Positions 51,023 through 55,343 of a DNA stretch of 64,000 bases are shown piece by piece. The notes under the pieces were generated by a model. That model was given only the letters and a program-made list of their open reading frames with translations, made no database searches and was not told the DNA's origin. Within the stretch, counting starts at the first letter, position 1. Each line of letters opens with the position of its first letter. This DNA comes from Giardia intestinalis (taxonomy: Eukaryota), in assembly GCA_000002435.2 (NCBI GenBank), contig CM018792.1; one strand, written 5' to 3'. A program made the translations under genes and the position numbers.

Positions 51023-52231
51023 ATGAAATCAGGTTCTGGCCTTCCTCCCTGTCCTTTATTCTTCCAGGATGGCCGCGTGGCAGGGAAATATCTGCGTTAT
51101 ACAGTAGCACCCATTATCCTTGTCGCGGGGGCTCCACTCGTTTTAGTCCGCCTTTTCTTAGCTATTCTGGGATCTATCGTCTTCGTCGCTTTAGCTTTCC
51201 TCGTCAACCTGGGGACTGATGCAGCCAAGCCTCTTCCTCGCGCACGAGACAAGTTCTGTGTTGGGCTCTTTCATTGGTATAGTCTTTACATTTCAGTTGT
51301 TACGGGTTACTTTTACACGGTGAAAAATGAGCAGCTGTCACACCACAAGGATGCACCGGTTGTTGTGGCCAACCATTCTTCGATAATGGACGCCTTCACC
51401 TTTTCGCTCAAATGCTTCGGGCATCCCGTTGGCAAGGAAGGGGTTCTAAACAACTGGGCCATACGGCAGATATTCCTCGCCGCTAGAGTTGTGATTGTTA
51501 GGCGTCCTCCGTCGGCCGAGATGCGTGAGCTACTCCAGCTCTATACGTCCCCGAGTGCCTCCGAAGCTGAGATCATATCCCTCAATCCGCAAGATGAGAA
51601 CATCCCTGCGCGTGATGCGGAGAAGATTGCAAAGTATCAGAAGCTGCTTGAGAGGCGCAAGGCGTTTGGAATCGCTGGTACATCTGAGATCCTGTGGAAC
51701 CGCGTCCACGATAGCGAGAACGAGTGGAAGCAAATCGTCCTATTTCCTGAAGGAACAGTCACTCCAGCCAGTTGTTTTACCAGGTTTAAAACAGGCGCCT
51801 TCCGCCTAAACGTCCCAGTTCAACCAGTGACGGTGCGGTACCGCAGCATCCTATCGACATGTTGGCTTTCAGACAGTGTTCTATTCAATCTGTATAAGAT
51901 TCTTGCCAATCCTGTGACACTCGTTGAAATGGAGTTTCACGAACCAATGTCGCGCGCAAGTGAGGAGACTCCGCGAGCTTTTGCAGATAGGGTTGGCAAA
52001 TATATGGCAGATGCGCTTGGAGCCGTTTATACCAACTATACAAACGATGACATGCTCTATTTCTATGGATACAAGAACATATCTGCATGCACAGAGGATT
52101 GGATCCGCGACTATGGGTGGATGCAACGTCTGACCGACTTTTCTGCACGCTTCGGCATCAACCCTAACTTCGGGATAGACCAGGAATTTGTTGATAAGTG
52201 CTACTTACAGCATCTTAAAGAGAAGAAGTAA
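51023..52231 (+). CDS. Lysophospholipid / 1-acylglycerol-3-phosphate acyltransferase family membrane protein
   Basis: Acyltransferase motif I VVANHSSIMDAF (HxxxxD) and motif III VLFPEGTVT (FPEGT). N-terminal TM helices are present. AGTAAAT overlaps the stop. Confidence 0.8.
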   Translation: MKSGSGLPPCPLFFQDGRVAGKYLRYTVAPIILVAGAPLVLVRLFLAILGSIVFVALAFLVNLGTDAAKPLPRARDKFCVGLFHWYSLYISVVTGYFYTVKNEQLSHHKDAPVVVANHSSIMDAFTFSLKCFGHPVGKEGVLNNWAIRQIFLAARVVIVRRPPSAEMRELLQLYTSPSASEAEIISLNPQDENIPARDAEKIAKYQKLLERRKAFGIAGTSEILWNRVHDSENEWKQIVLFPEGTVTPASCFTRFKTGAFRLNVPVQPVTVRYRSILSTCWLSDSVLFNLYKILANPVTLVEMEFHEPMSRASEETPRAFADRVGKYMADALGAVYTNYTNDDMLYFYGYKNISACTEDWIRDYGWMQRLTDFSARFGINPNFGIDQEFVDKCYLQHLKEKK

Positions 52232-52253
52232 ATTTACAACATATGGTATCTGC

Positions 52254-55067
52254 TCACTTCTTAACGACGCGTACCTGAGAGTTCTCCACAGCAGACGATC
52301 CCAGCTCAGGTGCATGGGCTGACACAGGGTAACGAGGGATAACGGTTTCACCCAGAAATGTAACTGTATCAAAGGACGCACGAATCTCTTGGCTAAGCAA
52401 GCCATAGACTGCAGGGCTTGGAATCTTGATGTCCACCTTCACGACCATCTGGTCCCAATCAAGGTCATCTCCGCCTCGCAGGTATGTAACATATCGTATG
52501 GTAGAGTAGTATTTCAAGGCAATCTTGCTGAGCTTTGCAAGGCTGCCATATGTGTCTGCCTGTCTGATCTCAACGCTGAGCATCCTCCCTAGAGCAATGA
52601 GTCCGTAGTTATAGATCTGTCTGACTCTAGTGAGGTCGATATTGCCACCACACAGAACGACAGCTATGTTCTCACGCTCAGCAAGGGTCAGCTTGTCATA
52701 CATCAGGGCCGCAATACCCATTGCTCCGGCGCCCTCGCAGAGCGTCCCTGTCGTGATAAGAGCATGAACAACCGCACTGGCGATCTCGTTCTCAGTCACC
52801 GAAATGAACTCGTCAACGTAGTTCTTGAGGACATCGTTGTGGATTCCTCCAAGAACCTTGACATTGCAGCCATCTGCTATTGTTCCAGCCGTTTTGTCAA
52901 CAGGGACAAGCTGGCCACTCTCTTTGTAGTTGCGGAGAGGAAACACCTTCTCTGCTTGGATCCCTGTGATCTTGATATTTGGATTGACTCTCTTAGCGTA
53001 AAGGGAGATTCCTGAAATCATACCGCCTCCTCCAATATTGACCAGGATGCGGTCAATGGAGGAAACGTGCCCTTGCCCGACCATCTTGTTCATCAGTTCG
53101 TGAGCAATTGTTCCTTGGCCCTCAATGACGTCGAACGAGTTATAGGGCGGGATAAACATCCAGCCGCGCTTCTCACAGAGTTCCTGGGAATACTTGCTTG
53201 CCTCATCGAAGACAGCACCGTGCTTAATCACTTCGGCGTTGTATCGCTTTGTGTTAACCAATTTGACAGTCGGAGCCGTCTCAGGGCAAACTATTGTGCA
53301 GCGAATACCCAACAAGTCACTTGTCTTGCTGACTCCCTGGGCGTGGTTTCCTGCAGAGCATGCCACAACCCCAGAGATCTCAGTATTATTGCTCTCGGCC
53401 CACTCCTTGCTCTTAATGAGCATATTGCTCGCCCCGCGGATCTTAAACGAGCCCGTCTGCTGAACATTTTCAAACTGGAGAATAACGGTGTGGTCAACGC
53501 CTGTCTTCTTCTGCAAAATATTGCTGTACGCCTTGGAGATGATGCAGGGGGTCTCGTGTATGGCTTTAGCTGCCTGAAGCTTGTTGTAAGCAAGCTCAAT
53601 AGTTGCCGGCGTTATCTCATCACACGACTTGATGGGGGAAACATATGTTCTGATGGGCTCGCCACTGGACGAAGCTCCCTCATTGAACTCCTCATAGGAG
53701 ACATCGCGCAGCCCCTCCTCCTTTATATTGTACTTAGGGATCGCCAACCCCAGGATGTTCTCATCACCGAAGACCTCGGACAACTCATTGTACAAAGAAA
53801 CTAAGTGCTGGTAGCCAGGGCCCGAGGCCTTGATAGAGACCTGCTGGTGTTGTATAGTCTTTACGTGAAAGCTAAGAATATTAATCGAGTGCTTGGAGAG
53901 GATATCTGTCAAACGGGTCATGAGATTCCCATCAAGTGTGTTGAGCTTGACAACGAAGTTCATGAGCTCTCCAGACTGGATTAGGGCATGCATCAAGGAG
54001 TATTCAATATTTGATGCAATGTCTATTTCCTCAAGAGAGGCAGAGACCGCCCCTGTGATGAAGCATAGTACGTTTGGTGTCGGGTTAAATCTTCTGAAAC
54101 CGGTCGTTCGCAGAAGCAGGGCTGTGAATGCCTCCACGTGGACATTTGTGCTGATGCAGTGAGTGGTAGACAGGAACTTGTAAAAACCTAGATGAACCAT
54201 GTCCTGGTCAACAAGCGCTGTGCTATATGGGAAGCCGCGAAGCTCTTCCTGGGACACGGAGTTGACGAGCTCGTTGTACTGATTCTCAATGAGTTTCTTG
54301 AAGTACTTAACCGTATCTATCTCATTGTAGAGGGCATCGAACGCGGCTTTGACAATAGGGTGCGTCTCACCAAAGATGCAATTGGCAAAGAACTGCTCGT
54401 GGGTAACACTGTCGCGCACAGTTTGGACCCATACGTGTGGATCCATTGCAGGGATGTGCTTAAGGTGCACGAGAGTGAGATCGCCACTGAATGCGATCTT
54501 CTTGTAATACTCAAGGCAGTACGTTGCAAAGTCGTTTCTGCGATAGAGCATGACGTTCTGAGGGATCACTACTTGGTGAACTATGTCTACCTCGTTGGCC
54601 ATCTGCGCATGCGTTGCATCAAGCATAAGCCATATGGCCTCACGGAAGTGGTCACTTATGTGAACAACCTTTTCCACCACGATATCTGCGACATAGTTGT
54701 CCAGATCAGCTCCGAGCTCGTGACATGCATAGGCGACAAACGCATATGCAAAGTTGGTGAGCAGGCCCGGGGCAAACTGAACACTTATTCTATAGTGAAG
54801 GCTGGCGGCTGCACCAACGAGCGGTATCAGCAAAGGAAAAGCCTTGTAGTTAGTCACCTTGAAACATATGCTCTTACTCTTGTCCCACCCTGTAATCTTT
54901 CCAATTGAGTATGCATAGCAACGATAAGCAATATCCATGTTGCTGCTCATATTCTCCATCTTTAGGTACACTTTGCAGCCCATGTCTCTATCCAGGAGCG
55001 GGAAGTTGTAAACAGGAGGCTCCCCCATGTTGAGGAAAGAGAGGAACTCCTGCATGGTGATAGTCAT
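52254..55067 (-). CDS. Threonine/serine dehydratase (PLP-dependent, fold type II) with a C-terminal ACT-like regulatory region and a roughly 480-aa N-terminal extension of unknown function
   Basis: Residues about 480-830 contain ..FENVQQTGSFKIRGA.. (PLP-Lys motif), SAGNHAQGV and the glycine-rich GGGGMISG loop of threonine dehydratase. The N-terminal half has no recognisable catalytic residues but carries a TD-like opening (GCKVYLKMEN). Confidence 0.85.
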   Translation of the reverse strand: MTITMQEFLSFLNMGEPPVYNFPLLDRDMGCKVYLKMENMSSNMDIAYRCYAYSIGKITGWDKSKSICFKVTNYKAFPLLIPLVGAAASLHYRISVQFAPGLLTNFAYAFVAYACHELGADLDNYVADIVVEKVVHISDHFREAIWLMLDATHAQMANEVDIVHQVVIPQNVMLYRRNDFATYCLEYYKKIAFSGDLTLVHLKHIPAMDPHVWVQTVRDSVTHEQFFANCIFGETHPIVKAAFDALYNEIDTVKYFKKLIENQYNELVNSVSQEELRGFPYSTALVDQDMVHLGFYKFLSTTHCISTNVHVEAFTALLLRTTGFRRFNPTPNVLCFITGAVSASLEEIDIASNIEYSLMHALIQSGELMNFVVKLNTLDGNLMTRLTDILSKHSINILSFHVKTIQHQQVSIKASGPGYQHLVSLYNELSEVFGDENILGLAIPKYNIKEEGLRDVSYEEFNEGASSSGEPIRTYVSPIKSCDEITPATIELAYNKLQAAKAIHETPCIISKAYSNILQKKTGVDHTVILQFENVQQTGSFKIRGASNMLIKSKEWAESNNTEISGVVACSAGNHAQGVSKTSDLLGIRCTIVCPETAPTVKLVNTKRYNAEVIKHGAVFDEASKYSQELCEKRGWMFIPPYNSFDVIEGQGTIAHELMNKMVGQGHVSSIDRILVNIGGGGMISGISLYAKRVNPNIKITGIQAEKVFPLRNYKESGQLVPVDKTAGTIADGCNVKVLGGIHNDVLKNYVDEFISVTENEIASAVVHALITTGTLCEGAGAMGIAALMYDKLTLAERENIAVVLCGGNIDLTRVRQIYNYGLIALGRMLSVEIRQADTYGSLAKLSKIALKYYSTIRYVTYLRGGDDLDWDQMVVKVDIKIPSPAVYGLLSQEIRASFDTVTFLGETVIPRYPVSAHAPELGSSAVENSQVRVVKK

Positions 55068-55343
55068 TAGTTTAAAAATAGCAATCTGAAAATTATTGAC
55101 TGCTTTTTTGAAAATAAGCGTCTAAAGGGCGAGCAGATCGGCGATACAAAGAGCGGTTAAAACACAGCGACGCAGCGACACAGAGAATCCTGTCAAGGAC
55201 AAGGCGGCTCTGCAAGAGCTGTGGAAACCTTCGAGTGCCCCTTCAAATGTATGGGAATAAGTCTGGAAATATGAAAAGTGAAAAGTTGGCCAAAAGCTAC
55301 TGAAAATCCAAAAATCTGCTGCATCTTCGCTGGGTAGAAGTGG

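Follow-up and report, generated by a model that had tools for sequence, protein, structure and literature searches.

How much of the Giardia intestinalis threonine dehydratase (TD) is enzyme, and what is the rest of the chain? In the window, by which we mean the whole 64,000-nt stretch of contig CM018792.1 (assembly GCA_000002435.2) that was analysed, one gene encodes a protein of 937 aa, of which only the C-terminal half looks like a conventional TD. For the other half, the first-pass annotation of the locus had proposed either a degenerate tandem duplicate of the PLP-fold domain, acting as a regulatory pseudo-enzyme, or a fusion to a novel domain. The analysis reported here favours a tandem of a live TD and an eroded, dead TD in which the dead half would serve as a built-in pseudo-subunit, and we give this reading as a whole a probability of about 0.6. 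A literature search for a double or pseudo-enzyme TD found no earlier description.

Gene model and the C-terminal half

The program-made list of reading frames holds a single uninterrupted ORF with an ATG start, at the same coordinates and of the same length as annotated at first (Table 1). A chance origin of a 937-codon open frame at ~49% GC is excluded. The AT-rich TATTTTTAAACTA just before the ATG is presumably the usual Giardia-type initiator context. The codon usage of the N-terminal half resembles that of the neighbour genes in frame (RSCU r 0.61) with values of 0.00 and 0.20 in the two other frames, and the two halves of the gene correlate with each other (RSCU r 0.77).

Table 1. Features of the threonine dehydratase gene, in positions of the window; aa numbers refer to the 937-aa protein.
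Feature	Position	Strand	Basis
Complete CDS, predicted dead TD copy-linker-active TD, 937 aa + stop	52254..55067	-	ORF list; Pfam and NCBIfam scans; codon-usage coherence between halves
AT-rich stretch TATTTTTAAACTA immediately 5' of ATG, putative Giardia-type initiator	55068..55080	-	sequence read; function inferred
N-half pseudo-PLP domain (predicted fold-type-II-derived), aa 16-345, approximate limits	54033..55022	-	hhalign vs TD profiles; controls; BLASTP to L004 N-half
Codon Ala47, column of PLP Schiff-base lysine (TGSFKIRGA vs NMDIAYRCY)	54927..54929	-	alignments; translation
N-half ACT-like domain (predicted), aa 366-446	53730..53972	-	hhalign; AlphaFold2 secondary structure; Foldseek; Pfam ACT_AHAS_ss E 0.098
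Inter-half linker, aa 447-483, KYNIKEEGLRDVSYEEFNEGASSSGEPIRTYVSPIKS, without Met	53619..53729	-	lowest pLDDT and coil in AlphaFold2 model
C-half catalytic PLP domain (predicted), aa 484-822	52602..53618	-	Pfam PALP 502-807; NF005600 484-877; PDB TdcB 2gn0 E 2.5e-63
Codon Lys542, predicted PLP Schiff-base lysine of C-half	53442..53444	-	translation; invariant column, 41-sequence TD alignment
C-half ACT-like regulatory domain (predicted), aa 823-905	52353..52601	-	TIGR01127 ilvA_1Cterm alignment; ACT-bearing homologues in alignment A1
C-terminal tail, aa 906-937, past bacterial TD end	52257..52352	-	comparison with relatives

The first-pass annotation had also asked whether a missed stop, a frameshift or a fault in the assembly had fused two neighbouring genes. 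We found nothing in favour of this scenario beyond its being possible a priori. It is contradicted by the continuous frame and the same codon usage in both halves, as well as by an independent fused ORF of 1,103/1,104 aa on polyadenylated transcripts of another organism (see below). Moreover, the published SNP positions 12, 348 and 739 of GL50803_12108, whose numbering lies within one residue of our ORF, imply an annotated protein that runs across both halves. Finally, the frame lacks Met codons between aa 383 and 549 (in aa 384-548), so that the C-half could not start by itself upstream of K542, its predicted catalytic lysine. We therefore regard such an artefact as extremely improbable. Lacking a separate start codon, the live half would be produced solely as part of the fusion. 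What had been described as a 480-aa N-terminal domain is indeed an extra N-terminal part, made up not of a single domain but of ~446 aa of domains and a 37-aa linker (aa 447-483).

The C-half carries every motif quoted for it at first, and the view of it as a canonical TD catalytic domain with an ACT-like tail holds. Pfam PALP (PF00291) matched aa 502-807 with E 3.4e-67 (227.3 bits, gathering cut-off 35). The motifs are TGSFKIRGA (aa 538-546, with K542; nt 53430-53456), SAGNHAQG (571-578), GGGGMISG (679-686) and LCGGNIDL (805-812), and K542, SAGNHAQG, the tetraglycine loop and C/SGGN occupy columns that do not vary across the alignment of 41 TDs. In the NCBIfam scan NF005600 aligned to aa 484-877, starting at aa 484, and TIGR01127 (ilvA_1Cterm) spanned aa 513-892. 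The latter alignment covers model positions 4-368 of 380 and, since it reaches position 368, we take the ACT-like tail to be real; no Pfam ACT model scored above threshold on this tail in the Pfam scan. The C-half scored 305.5 bits, under the TIGR01127 equivalog cut-off of 378.75, and is a divergent eukaryotic member of the threonine ammonia-lyases. The sequence predicts that aa 484-905 form an entire single-ACT TD, with all PLP-binding signatures intact, that is most probably active; TD activity of the Giardia protein has been assumed from annotation (PMC5355454).

The nearest relatives of the C-half are eukaryote-like proteins (44-48% identity), followed by diverse bacteria (at most 42%), and no lateral-transfer donor was identifiable among the matches listed. 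C-terminal tails are present in the eukaryote-like relatives of the Giardia TD too. The single-ACT bacterial threonine ammonia-lyases (TIGR01127 ilvA_1Cterm; Bacillus subtilis IlvA type) share with the C-half the domain order, PLP followed by one ACT-like domain, and all PLP motifs, and many bacterial members of this type are 36-42% identical to it; the N-half is colinear with the same PLP plus ACT-like unit. These bacterial enzymes are ~400 aa long and have one unit per chain, whereas the Giardia chain has two, and among the 120 best relatives listed only the cluster holding P0122 is of double length.

Origin of the N-terminal half

Database searches with the Giardia N-half returned no family. 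There was no Pfam or NCBIfam match above threshold, the Pfam scan giving no match to PALP, and exhaustive phmmer with aa 1-470 gave 0 matches in 1.84 billion (1.84e9) proteins (representatives). The metagenome scan with the Giardia N-half and the prokaryote-genome scan with the N-half alignment gave no match either. The same was true of a word-indexed search, which is a weak negative since the index also missed P0001 (with its own first 129 aa as query) and P0121. The Giardia N-half has no single pairwise or Pfam match to TD at database-wide significance, and the case for homology combines P-values of single comparisons with their controls, with colinearity and with a transitive bridge.

For the hhalign comparisons we used a TD profile that includes ACT-bearing homologues and contains the linker overhang of P0001 (A1), a second TD profile of bacteria only, and a profile of three N-halves. 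Against A1, the N-half gave two colinear local matches, N16-66 (P 6.9e-4) and N298-446 (P 5.5e-4), and a global P of 5.4e-7. The second match covers the last part of the PLP domain of TD together with the ACT-like domain, and this fragment alone gave P 2.4e-4. With the three-sequence N-half profile and the bacteria-only profile, TD 21-396 aligned to N 16-430 in one alignment of 331 columns (P 3.7e-6; global P 4.6e-9). In 120 shuffles of the N-half the local score was 16.0 ± 2.9 (maximum 29.8) as compared to 37.0 observed, and the global score 2.8 ± 2.2 (maximum 14.7) as compared to 37.4 observed; the reversed N-half scored 14.5 locally and 8.7 globally. Shuffling in 20-aa blocks, which preserves local patterns and breaks their order, gave 6.0 ± 6.3 (maximum 26.8) against 30.6 observed. 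The motifs of the N-half follow the TD order (ETP..VYLKxEN.., ICFxVT, ..GG.ID.., ACT), identity to TDs is 16-18%, and the middle (~aa 130-300) aligns poorly and has insertions. A direct BLASTP comparison of the N-half with the C-half gave a sole match with E 0.006, which was out of register (N57-120 vs C-half 209-274) and which we took as chance.

The end of the N-half also has possible features of an ACT domain. Pfam ACT_AHAS_ss scored 13.3 bits on the N-half (E 0.098), under its cut-off of 27. AlphaFold2 provided no usable 3-D model for the full-length single sequence (pLDDT 33) or for the N-half with a three-sequence MSA (pLDDT 36), from which true TDs were kept out because including them would have been circular. 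From these models we took, with caution, no more than the order of the secondary-structure elements and the ACT-like piece. The predicted elements (E369-373, H380-392, E396-405, E407-415, H419-433, E440-442), at a pLDDT of just 50-62, give the order beta-alpha-beta-beta-alpha-beta at aa 366-446 in a low-confidence model. When this low-confidence N-half model was compared with the PDB by Foldseek, the top matches were all ACT-type domains (TM to target 0.5-0.69, E at least 0.011), with no match at E 0.001 or below; we take this comparison as support solely for the uniformity of its top matches.

A novel or unrelated domain fused to TD, the alternative put forward in the first-pass annotation, would agree with the missing Pfam and NCBIfam matches, the lack of homologues in the protein search and the lack of a confident AlphaFold2 fold. 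Sub-threshold Pfam matches to ADDT and aGPT-Pplase3 at aa 141-273 (E 0.03-0.1) could also be read in its favour; however, these are related families, far under their cut-offs and in the least conserved region, and we rejected them. The colinear profile alignment over almost the entire TD, above all controls, the TD-like order of motifs and the match of the homologous L004 N-half to PALP (see below) speak against a novel domain, which we consider very improbable. The N-half is very probably a degenerate duplicate of a whole TD, and the N-terminal unit (aa 16-446) reads as an ancient, heavily eroded TD copy with a PLP domain and an ACT-like domain. The duplicate proposed earlier is supported by the profile alignments with their controls and by the bridging homologue, but the duplicated unit is the whole enzyme, PLP plus ACT-like, and not the PLP-fold domain alone.

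The TD-like N-terminal string that had been noticed as lacking the PLP lysine and the glycine loop is DMGCKVYLKMENMSSNMDIAYRCY at aa 28-51, and the translation confirms the observation, with no lysine at that site and no Gly loop after it. The Schiff-base lysine column is occupied by Ala47, and the Gly-loop and SAGNH columns read VVIPQNVMLY and ICFKVTNYKAF. In the L004 clade the lysine is likewise replaced by Ala (LGDVAARGY), and neither lineage retains the Asn-His of SAGNH or the tetraglycine loop. Since the Schiff-base lysine and the glycine phosphate-binding loop are gone, PLP binding or catalysis by the N-unit is implausible. The active-site neighbours E38, N39 and R49 are still present, which would suit an N-half that remained an enzyme, either with different chemistry or with PLP bound via another lysine. 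However, given the losses common to both lineages and the lack of a match to any other family profile, an active N-half is highly improbable. By its sequence, the N-half is a pseudoenzyme, derived from an active paralogue and deprived of its catalytic residues.

The same architecture in another protist lineage

Two metatranscriptome proteins, P0121 (L004, 1,104 aa) and P0122 (L007/L008, 1,103 aa), have the dead-TD/linker/live-TD architecture, and their fused ORFs were found on polyadenylated transcripts in three samples, L007 with a poly(A) tail. The organisms are not Giardia, as indicated by the standard code, long AT-rich 5' UTRs and poly(A) tails together with the sequence divergence. These proteins share with the Giardia TD the dead-plus-live layout, Lys-to-Ala at the dead site and a C-terminal tail; identity is 47% in the live half as against ~20% in the dead half, which is ~100 aa longer than that of Giardia and has an EF-hand-like insertion. 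An alternative code (TAR = Gln) considered for the truncated P0004/P0005 was rejected, as the contigs simply end (L001) or hold a GT-AG intron (L003), and a resemblance of the L003 5' peptide to the L004 linker had no BLASTP support.

The L004 N-half matched Pfam PALP with E 8.5e-7 (29.0 bits, under the gathering score of 35) and scored 46.2 against the bacterial TD profile, as compared to 15.8 ± 2.4 in shuffles; the bacteria-only profile was used here because A1 was confounded by the P0001 linker overhang. BLASTP linked the Giardia N-half to the L004 N-half (E 3e-7), with 35% identity to the L004 clade in the best segment. An active TD aligns directly to the P0122 N-half (E 7e-5), and the L004 N-half aligns to its own C-half in two colinear HSPs. 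The N-half segment most conserved between the lineages is the strand-loop-helix of the former active site, in which 22 of 62 residues are identical. Judged from these alignments, at least one further lineage of eukaryotes has the two-half dead-plus-live TD architecture. As a lineage just 47% identical in the active half has both the Lys-to-Ala change and the architecture, the dead half has been kept over a very long time.

Between L004 and L007, dN/dS was 0.10 in the dead N-half and 0.09 in the active C-half; dS is ~1, near saturation, so these ratios are approximate. In this sister clade, purifying selection acts on the dead half as strongly as on the live half. The N-half could also be a functionless relic in neutral drift, kept just for the start codon and promoter, and its extreme decay (low identity to TDs and, in the best segment, to the L004 clade) and low AlphaFold2 confidence would be in line with this. 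Such a relic is nevertheless improbable, given ~480 codons that are still open, the Lys-to-Ala change and architecture shared with a distant lineage, the dN/dS of the dead half in the sister lineage, and the former active site as the best conserved segment.

Possible role and significance

We lean towards the dead half being functional, as a regulatory or structural partner. Of the regulatory pseudo-enzyme suggested at first, the dead TD copy has held up; the regulatory role is something we infer, with purifying selection seen in the sister clade only. Fold-type-II TDs act as dimers or tetramers, and single-ACT TDs need ACT domains paired between chains for effector sites. The dead half of the Giardia TD may be a built-in pseudo-subunit, with the two halves folded back together as an intramolecular pseudo-dimer. 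The N-ACT would then pair with the C-ACT, possibly with the pocket of the former active site, as a regulatory module gating the single active site, and the live site would make 2-oxobutyrate from threonine, feeding PFOR-2 and the formation of propionate and ATP. A more far-reaching version, which we hold only tentatively and consider rather unlikely, makes the dead half an allosteric receptor: its pocket and the paired ACTs would act as a metabolite sensor that gates threonine catabolism and, through it, the supply of 2-oxobutyrate to PFOR-2, and the EF-hand pair of the sister lineage would add Ca2+ control. If true, the Giardia TD would be the first enzyme/pseudoenzyme tandem to be described for the fold-type-II PLP superfamily, and also a shared derived character by which to trace eukaryote-to-eukaryote transfer of the TD gene.

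Among known systems, the biosynthetic IlvA of E. coli, which has two ACT-like subdomains (1tdj, E 2e-41), and the catabolic TdcB (2gn0, E 2.5e-63) have catalytic domains homologous to the Giardia C-half. TD regulation in E. coli IlvA goes through paired ACT-like modules. IlvA duplicates the regulatory module only and TdcB has none, whereas in Giardia the whole enzyme appears duplicated, with one catalytic domain dead. Mammalian hexokinase I and eukaryotic phosphofructokinase-1 (PFK-1) are duplication-fusion enzymes with one regulatory half. The Giardia TD would follow the same logic, one half of a fused duplicate having turned regulatory, and it shares with them tandem duplication, fusion and loss of catalysis in one retained half; their folds and chemistry are unrelated, and the regulatory role in Giardia is putative. 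In parasites, the trypanosomatid AdoMetDC prozyme and deoxyhypusine synthase paralogue are pseudoenzyme partners of active paralogues. Here too a dead paralogue is retained beside an active enzyme in a parasitic protist, but the trypanosomatid partners are separate polypeptides that form heteromers, while the Giardia halves are covalently fused.

Expression of the Giardia TD gene is documented for RNA as well as protein; in lines resistant to metronidazole it is repeatedly reduced and the gene repeatedly mutated, two of the three SNPs, N12D and D348H, falling in the N-half (PMC5355454, PMC8866875). The enzyme supplies 2-oxobutyrate to Giardia PFOR-2, an electron source implicated in metronidazole activation, and recognition of the dead copy puts the N12D and D348H mutations in context. 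It also leads one to expect that each 105-kDa chain binds a single PLP and forms an intramolecular pseudo-dimer, and the dead half may offer a parasite-specific regulatory surface and a possible drug handle. For the fold-type-II PLP superfamily, the Giardia TD would add a clear duplication-fusion pseudoenzyme. The architecture common to another protist lineage would be a rare-genomic-change marker and could help to trace a laterally mobile TD gene among anaerobic eukaryotes.

Gene context and integrity of the reading frame

The threonine dehydratase (TD) gene is a single ORF whose ATG is immediately preceded by the AT-rich TATTTTTAAACTA. The window resembles a Giardia chromosome, and the neighbouring ankyrin-repeat and acyltransferase genes are packed within 22-45 bp. 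Gene packing is extreme at the convergent ends, where the acyltransferase and TD stops are so close that the 3ʹ ends must overlap, as must the polyadenylation signals. The ankyrin-repeat protein is of a kind typical for Giardia's large ankyrin-repeat ('21.1') family; in the divergent neighbour no Pfam domain was matched at E 0.001 or lower. The long antisense ORFs are probably a by-product of coding-strand composition. The gene corresponds to GL50803_12108, 'threonine dehydratase' in the literature. Among its published substitutions (12, 348 and 739), L739 agreed exactly with our ORF, and the N and D were found at 13 and 349, off by one; these positions imply that the annotated model spans both halves.

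Features of the TD locus (window positions) and of related contigs (nt of the contig)
Feature	Coordinates	Strand	Remarks
Ankyrin-repeat protein, 781 aa	48633-50978	+	Pfam Ank_2, E 3e-64; C-terminal tail with Cys
Acyltransferase	51023-52231	+	Pfam PF01553; convergent with TD gene
Gap between acyltransferase and TD stops	52232-52253		22 bp
TD, 937 aa	52254-55067	-	ATG start; ORF listing
Antisense ORF, 245 aa	53067-53804	+	within TD gene; ORF listing
Antisense ORF, 238 aa	54192-54908	+	within TD gene; ORF listing
Divergent neighbour, 621 aa	55344-57209	+	276-bp intergenic region common to TD gene
L003, intron	160-228		canonical GT...AG, in TD N-terminus
L004, EF-hand-like loop	~1025-1099		aa 288-312 of the 1,104-aa ORF; same place in P0122
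L005, live TD half	59-1483		85% identical to P0001

The first-pass annotation had confined the TD catalytic domain and ACT-like tail to the C-terminal half, and our searches agreed. At E 3.4e-67, Pfam PALP, the fold-type-II PLP-enzyme domain, was matched on aa 502-807, aa 513-892 aligned with NCBIfam TIGR01127 (threonine ammonia-lyase, one C-terminal regulatory domain), and the catalytic signatures were intact (K542 within TGSFKIRGA, SAGNHAQG, GGGGMISG and LCGGNIDL). The best PDB relatives of the 937-aa protein were TdcB and IlvA. Judged by its motifs, all of which are present, the C-half appears to be a divergent single-ACT threonine ammonia-lyase scoring below the NCBIfam equivalog cut-off. 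Among the matches listed, those nearest to it were eukaryote-like fragments from metagenomes and metatranscriptomes, at 44-48% identity; bacterial single-ACT TDs of diverse origin came next, at no more than 42%.

The N-half could in principle belong to a separate upstream gene, joined to the TD by a missed stop or a frameshift. The frame, however, runs without interruption across both halves, whose codon usage is similar (RSCU r 0.77) and also like that of neighbouring genes, with the coding signal confined to the true frame. From aa 383 to 549 there is no Met codon; a C-half with a start of its own would thus lack the catalytic lysine, K542, and could not work as an enzyme. The same fused architecture also occurs on polyadenylated transcripts of another organism, from the L004 clade described below. 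On these grounds an artefactual fusion was rejected.

Remote homology of the N-terminal half

The first 490 aa gave no significant Pfam or NCBIfam match. No match to the N-half was found in a word-indexed protein search, none at E 0.001 or better when phmmer was run exhaustively against 1.84 billion cluster representatives, and no relatives in a scan of prokaryotic genomes. The word-indexed negatives should be weighted lightly, since that search missed P0121 (the protein of contig L004) among the C-half matches, and missed the database protein P0001 with P0001's own first 129 aa as query. Self-alignment of the halves, the check proposed earlier, produced nothing in register by simple BLASTP.

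When a 41-sequence TD profile was compared with the N-half by hhalign, two separate local matches colinear with TD were obtained: N16-66 with the strand-loop-helix 'ETP...G..VYLKxEN.Q.TGSFKIRGA' (P 6.9e-4), and N298-446 with the ACT-like domain and, ahead of it, the final helix and strand of the PLP domain (P 5.5e-4). Aligned globally, profile and N-half gave P 5.4e-7. Empirical controls were run through the same pipeline. The local score of 37.0 compared with 16.0 +/- 2.9 (max 29.8) for 120 residue shuffles and 14.5 for the reversed sequence, and the global score of 37.4 with 2.8 +/- 2.2 (max 14.7) and 8.7, respectively. With a bacteria-only profile, the global score was 30.6 versus 6.0 +/- 6.3 (max 26.8) for 100 shuffles of 20-aa blocks, which destroy order and retain local patterns. 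A profile of three N-halves aligned with the bacteria-only profile in one continuous local alignment, TD 21-396 (of 402) to Giardia 16-430, over 331 columns (local P 3.7e-6, global P 4.6e-9).

AlphaFold2 gave no confident model, either for the full-length single sequence (mean pLDDT 33) or for the N-half with a three-sequence MSA lacking true TDs (mean pLDDT 36). The order of the low-confidence elements (strand 33-37, helix 45-58, strand 66-71, helix 74-89, strand 93-98, helix 104-117) matches that of TD, consistent with the alignments. Residues 369-442 were modelled, also at low confidence, as a beta-alpha-beta-beta-alpha-beta unit (pLDDT 50-62). Foldseek of the N-half model against the PDB returned no match at E 0.001 or better, and its top matches were all ACT-type regulatory domains (prephenate dehydratase, TPH2, IlvN, RelA and aspartokinase), which together with the secondary structure hints at an ACT-like assignment.

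A sister clade with the same architecture

The P0001 fragment starts at a contig edge with ~85 aa ahead of its TD. A metagenome scan with P0001 led to L004, which carries a complete 1,104-aa ORF with an N-terminal extension of ~610 aa, and a cluster look-up led to P0122 (1,103 aa) on L007 and L008, contigs from two further samples. The poly(A) run at the end of L007 marks it as a mature mRNA. Among the best 120 C-half relatives listed, no double-length protein was found outside the cluster holding P0122.

The L004 N-half matched Pfam PALP at aa 27-165 (E 8.5e-7, 29 bits, below the gathering score of 35 bits) and aligned with the bacteria-only TD profile at P 2.7e-5, with 343 columns covered and a score of 46.2 (15.8 +/- 2.4, max 22.3, for shuffles). 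Two weak, colinear HSPs connected it to its own C-half, and the active TD of a third lineage (L003) aligned directly with the L004-clade N-half (E 7e-5). Giardia N-half aa 16-77 in turn aligned in register with L004 28-100 (E 3e-7). Through these alignments the L004 N-half links the Giardia N-half to true TDs. The profile comparisons and this bridge bear out the earlier proposal of a degenerate tandem duplicate, and extend it: the copy appears to comprise not the PLP fold alone but a whole single-ACT TD (aa 16-446), a reading to which we assign a probability of about 0.9.

Other relatives were also noted. L005 (ENA UOJE01013642, human gut metagenome, 3,321 nt) is a GC-rich (63%) eukaryotic contig, perhaps, as a guess, from a Blastocystis-like organism; its live TD half is flanked by methyltransferase-like and kinase-like genes, and the contig edge falls where the dead half would begin. 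Upstream of the intron in L003, of the eukaryote-like P0005 clade, no stop interrupts the frame before the contig edge, and an upstream half may therefore be present in this clade too; BLASTP gave no support for a resemblance of its upstream peptide to the linker.

Loss of the active site and possible role of the dead half

The absence of the PLP lysine and glycine loop from the N-half, noted in the first-pass annotation, was borne out by the multiple alignment. The Schiff-base column holds Lys in all active units and Ala in the Giardia and L004-clade N-halves, with TGSFKIRGA aligned to NMDIAYRCY and LGDVAARGY, respectively. SAGNHAQ is replaced by ICFKVTNY (Giardia) and ICFAVTRG (L004), and the tetraglycine loop by VVIPQNVM and VLPSEAAS. 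The Glu-Asn and Arg flanking the Schiff-base column are retained in both dead halves, and the ex-active-site element is the best-kept segment between them (22/62 identical versus 8-20% elsewhere). Without the features that define a working PALP enzyme, the N-half is most aptly termed a pseudoenzyme module derived from TD. That both dead halves have the Lys-to-Ala change favours one inactivation event, which we infer preceded the divergence of the two lineages.

The dead half is constrained in the sister clade: between L004 and L007, dN/dS was 0.10 for the N-half (pN 0.12, pS 0.62) and 0.09 for the C-half, ratios that are approximate because dS is ~1. A loop that looks like a canonical EF hand also lies in the L004-clade dead half (DADSNGVLTASE in L004, DTDSNGQLTASE in P0122), with Pfam EF-hand_6 below threshold (E 0.009-0.013) and faint PDB matches to CDPK calmodulin-like domains. 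This insertion suggests that the half in question has a regulatory function. In Giardia, the segment aligned with the loop, FGETHPIVKAAF, is without Ca-ligand residues.

Giardia TD supplies 2-oxobutyrate to PFOR-2 (PMC5355454) and is down-regulated in most metronidazole-resistant lines (PMC5355454, PMC8866875); two of the three resistance-line substitutions fall in the N-half, which is anecdotal (PMC5355454, PMC8866875). According to the G. muris genome paper, which simply gives the gene as a lateral transfer, it occurs in G. intestinalis, Spironucleus and Trepomonas but not in G. muris. Our literature search for a duplicated or pseudo-enzyme TD found no description.

TDs work as dimers or tetramers, and their allostery depends on ACT-like modules that pair. 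Each chain of E. coli IlvA has two such modules, and in single-ACT TDs the pairing has to be made between chains. A dead and a live unit on one chain could form an intramolecular pseudo-dimer with a single active site, in which the N-ACT would pair with the C-ACT as a regulatory module and the ex-active-site pocket might act as an extra ligand site. Hexokinase I and PFK-1 follow the same logic, and trypanosomatid AdoMetDC and DHS, each with a dead paralogue as partner, offer a similar case. The concept of duplication-fusion with one half turned pseudoenzyme has precedents; the finding itself is solid, and in a fold-type-II PLP enzyme it is apparently undescribed. On balance, we lean slightly towards the dead half being a functional regulatory or structural partner of the live enzyme.
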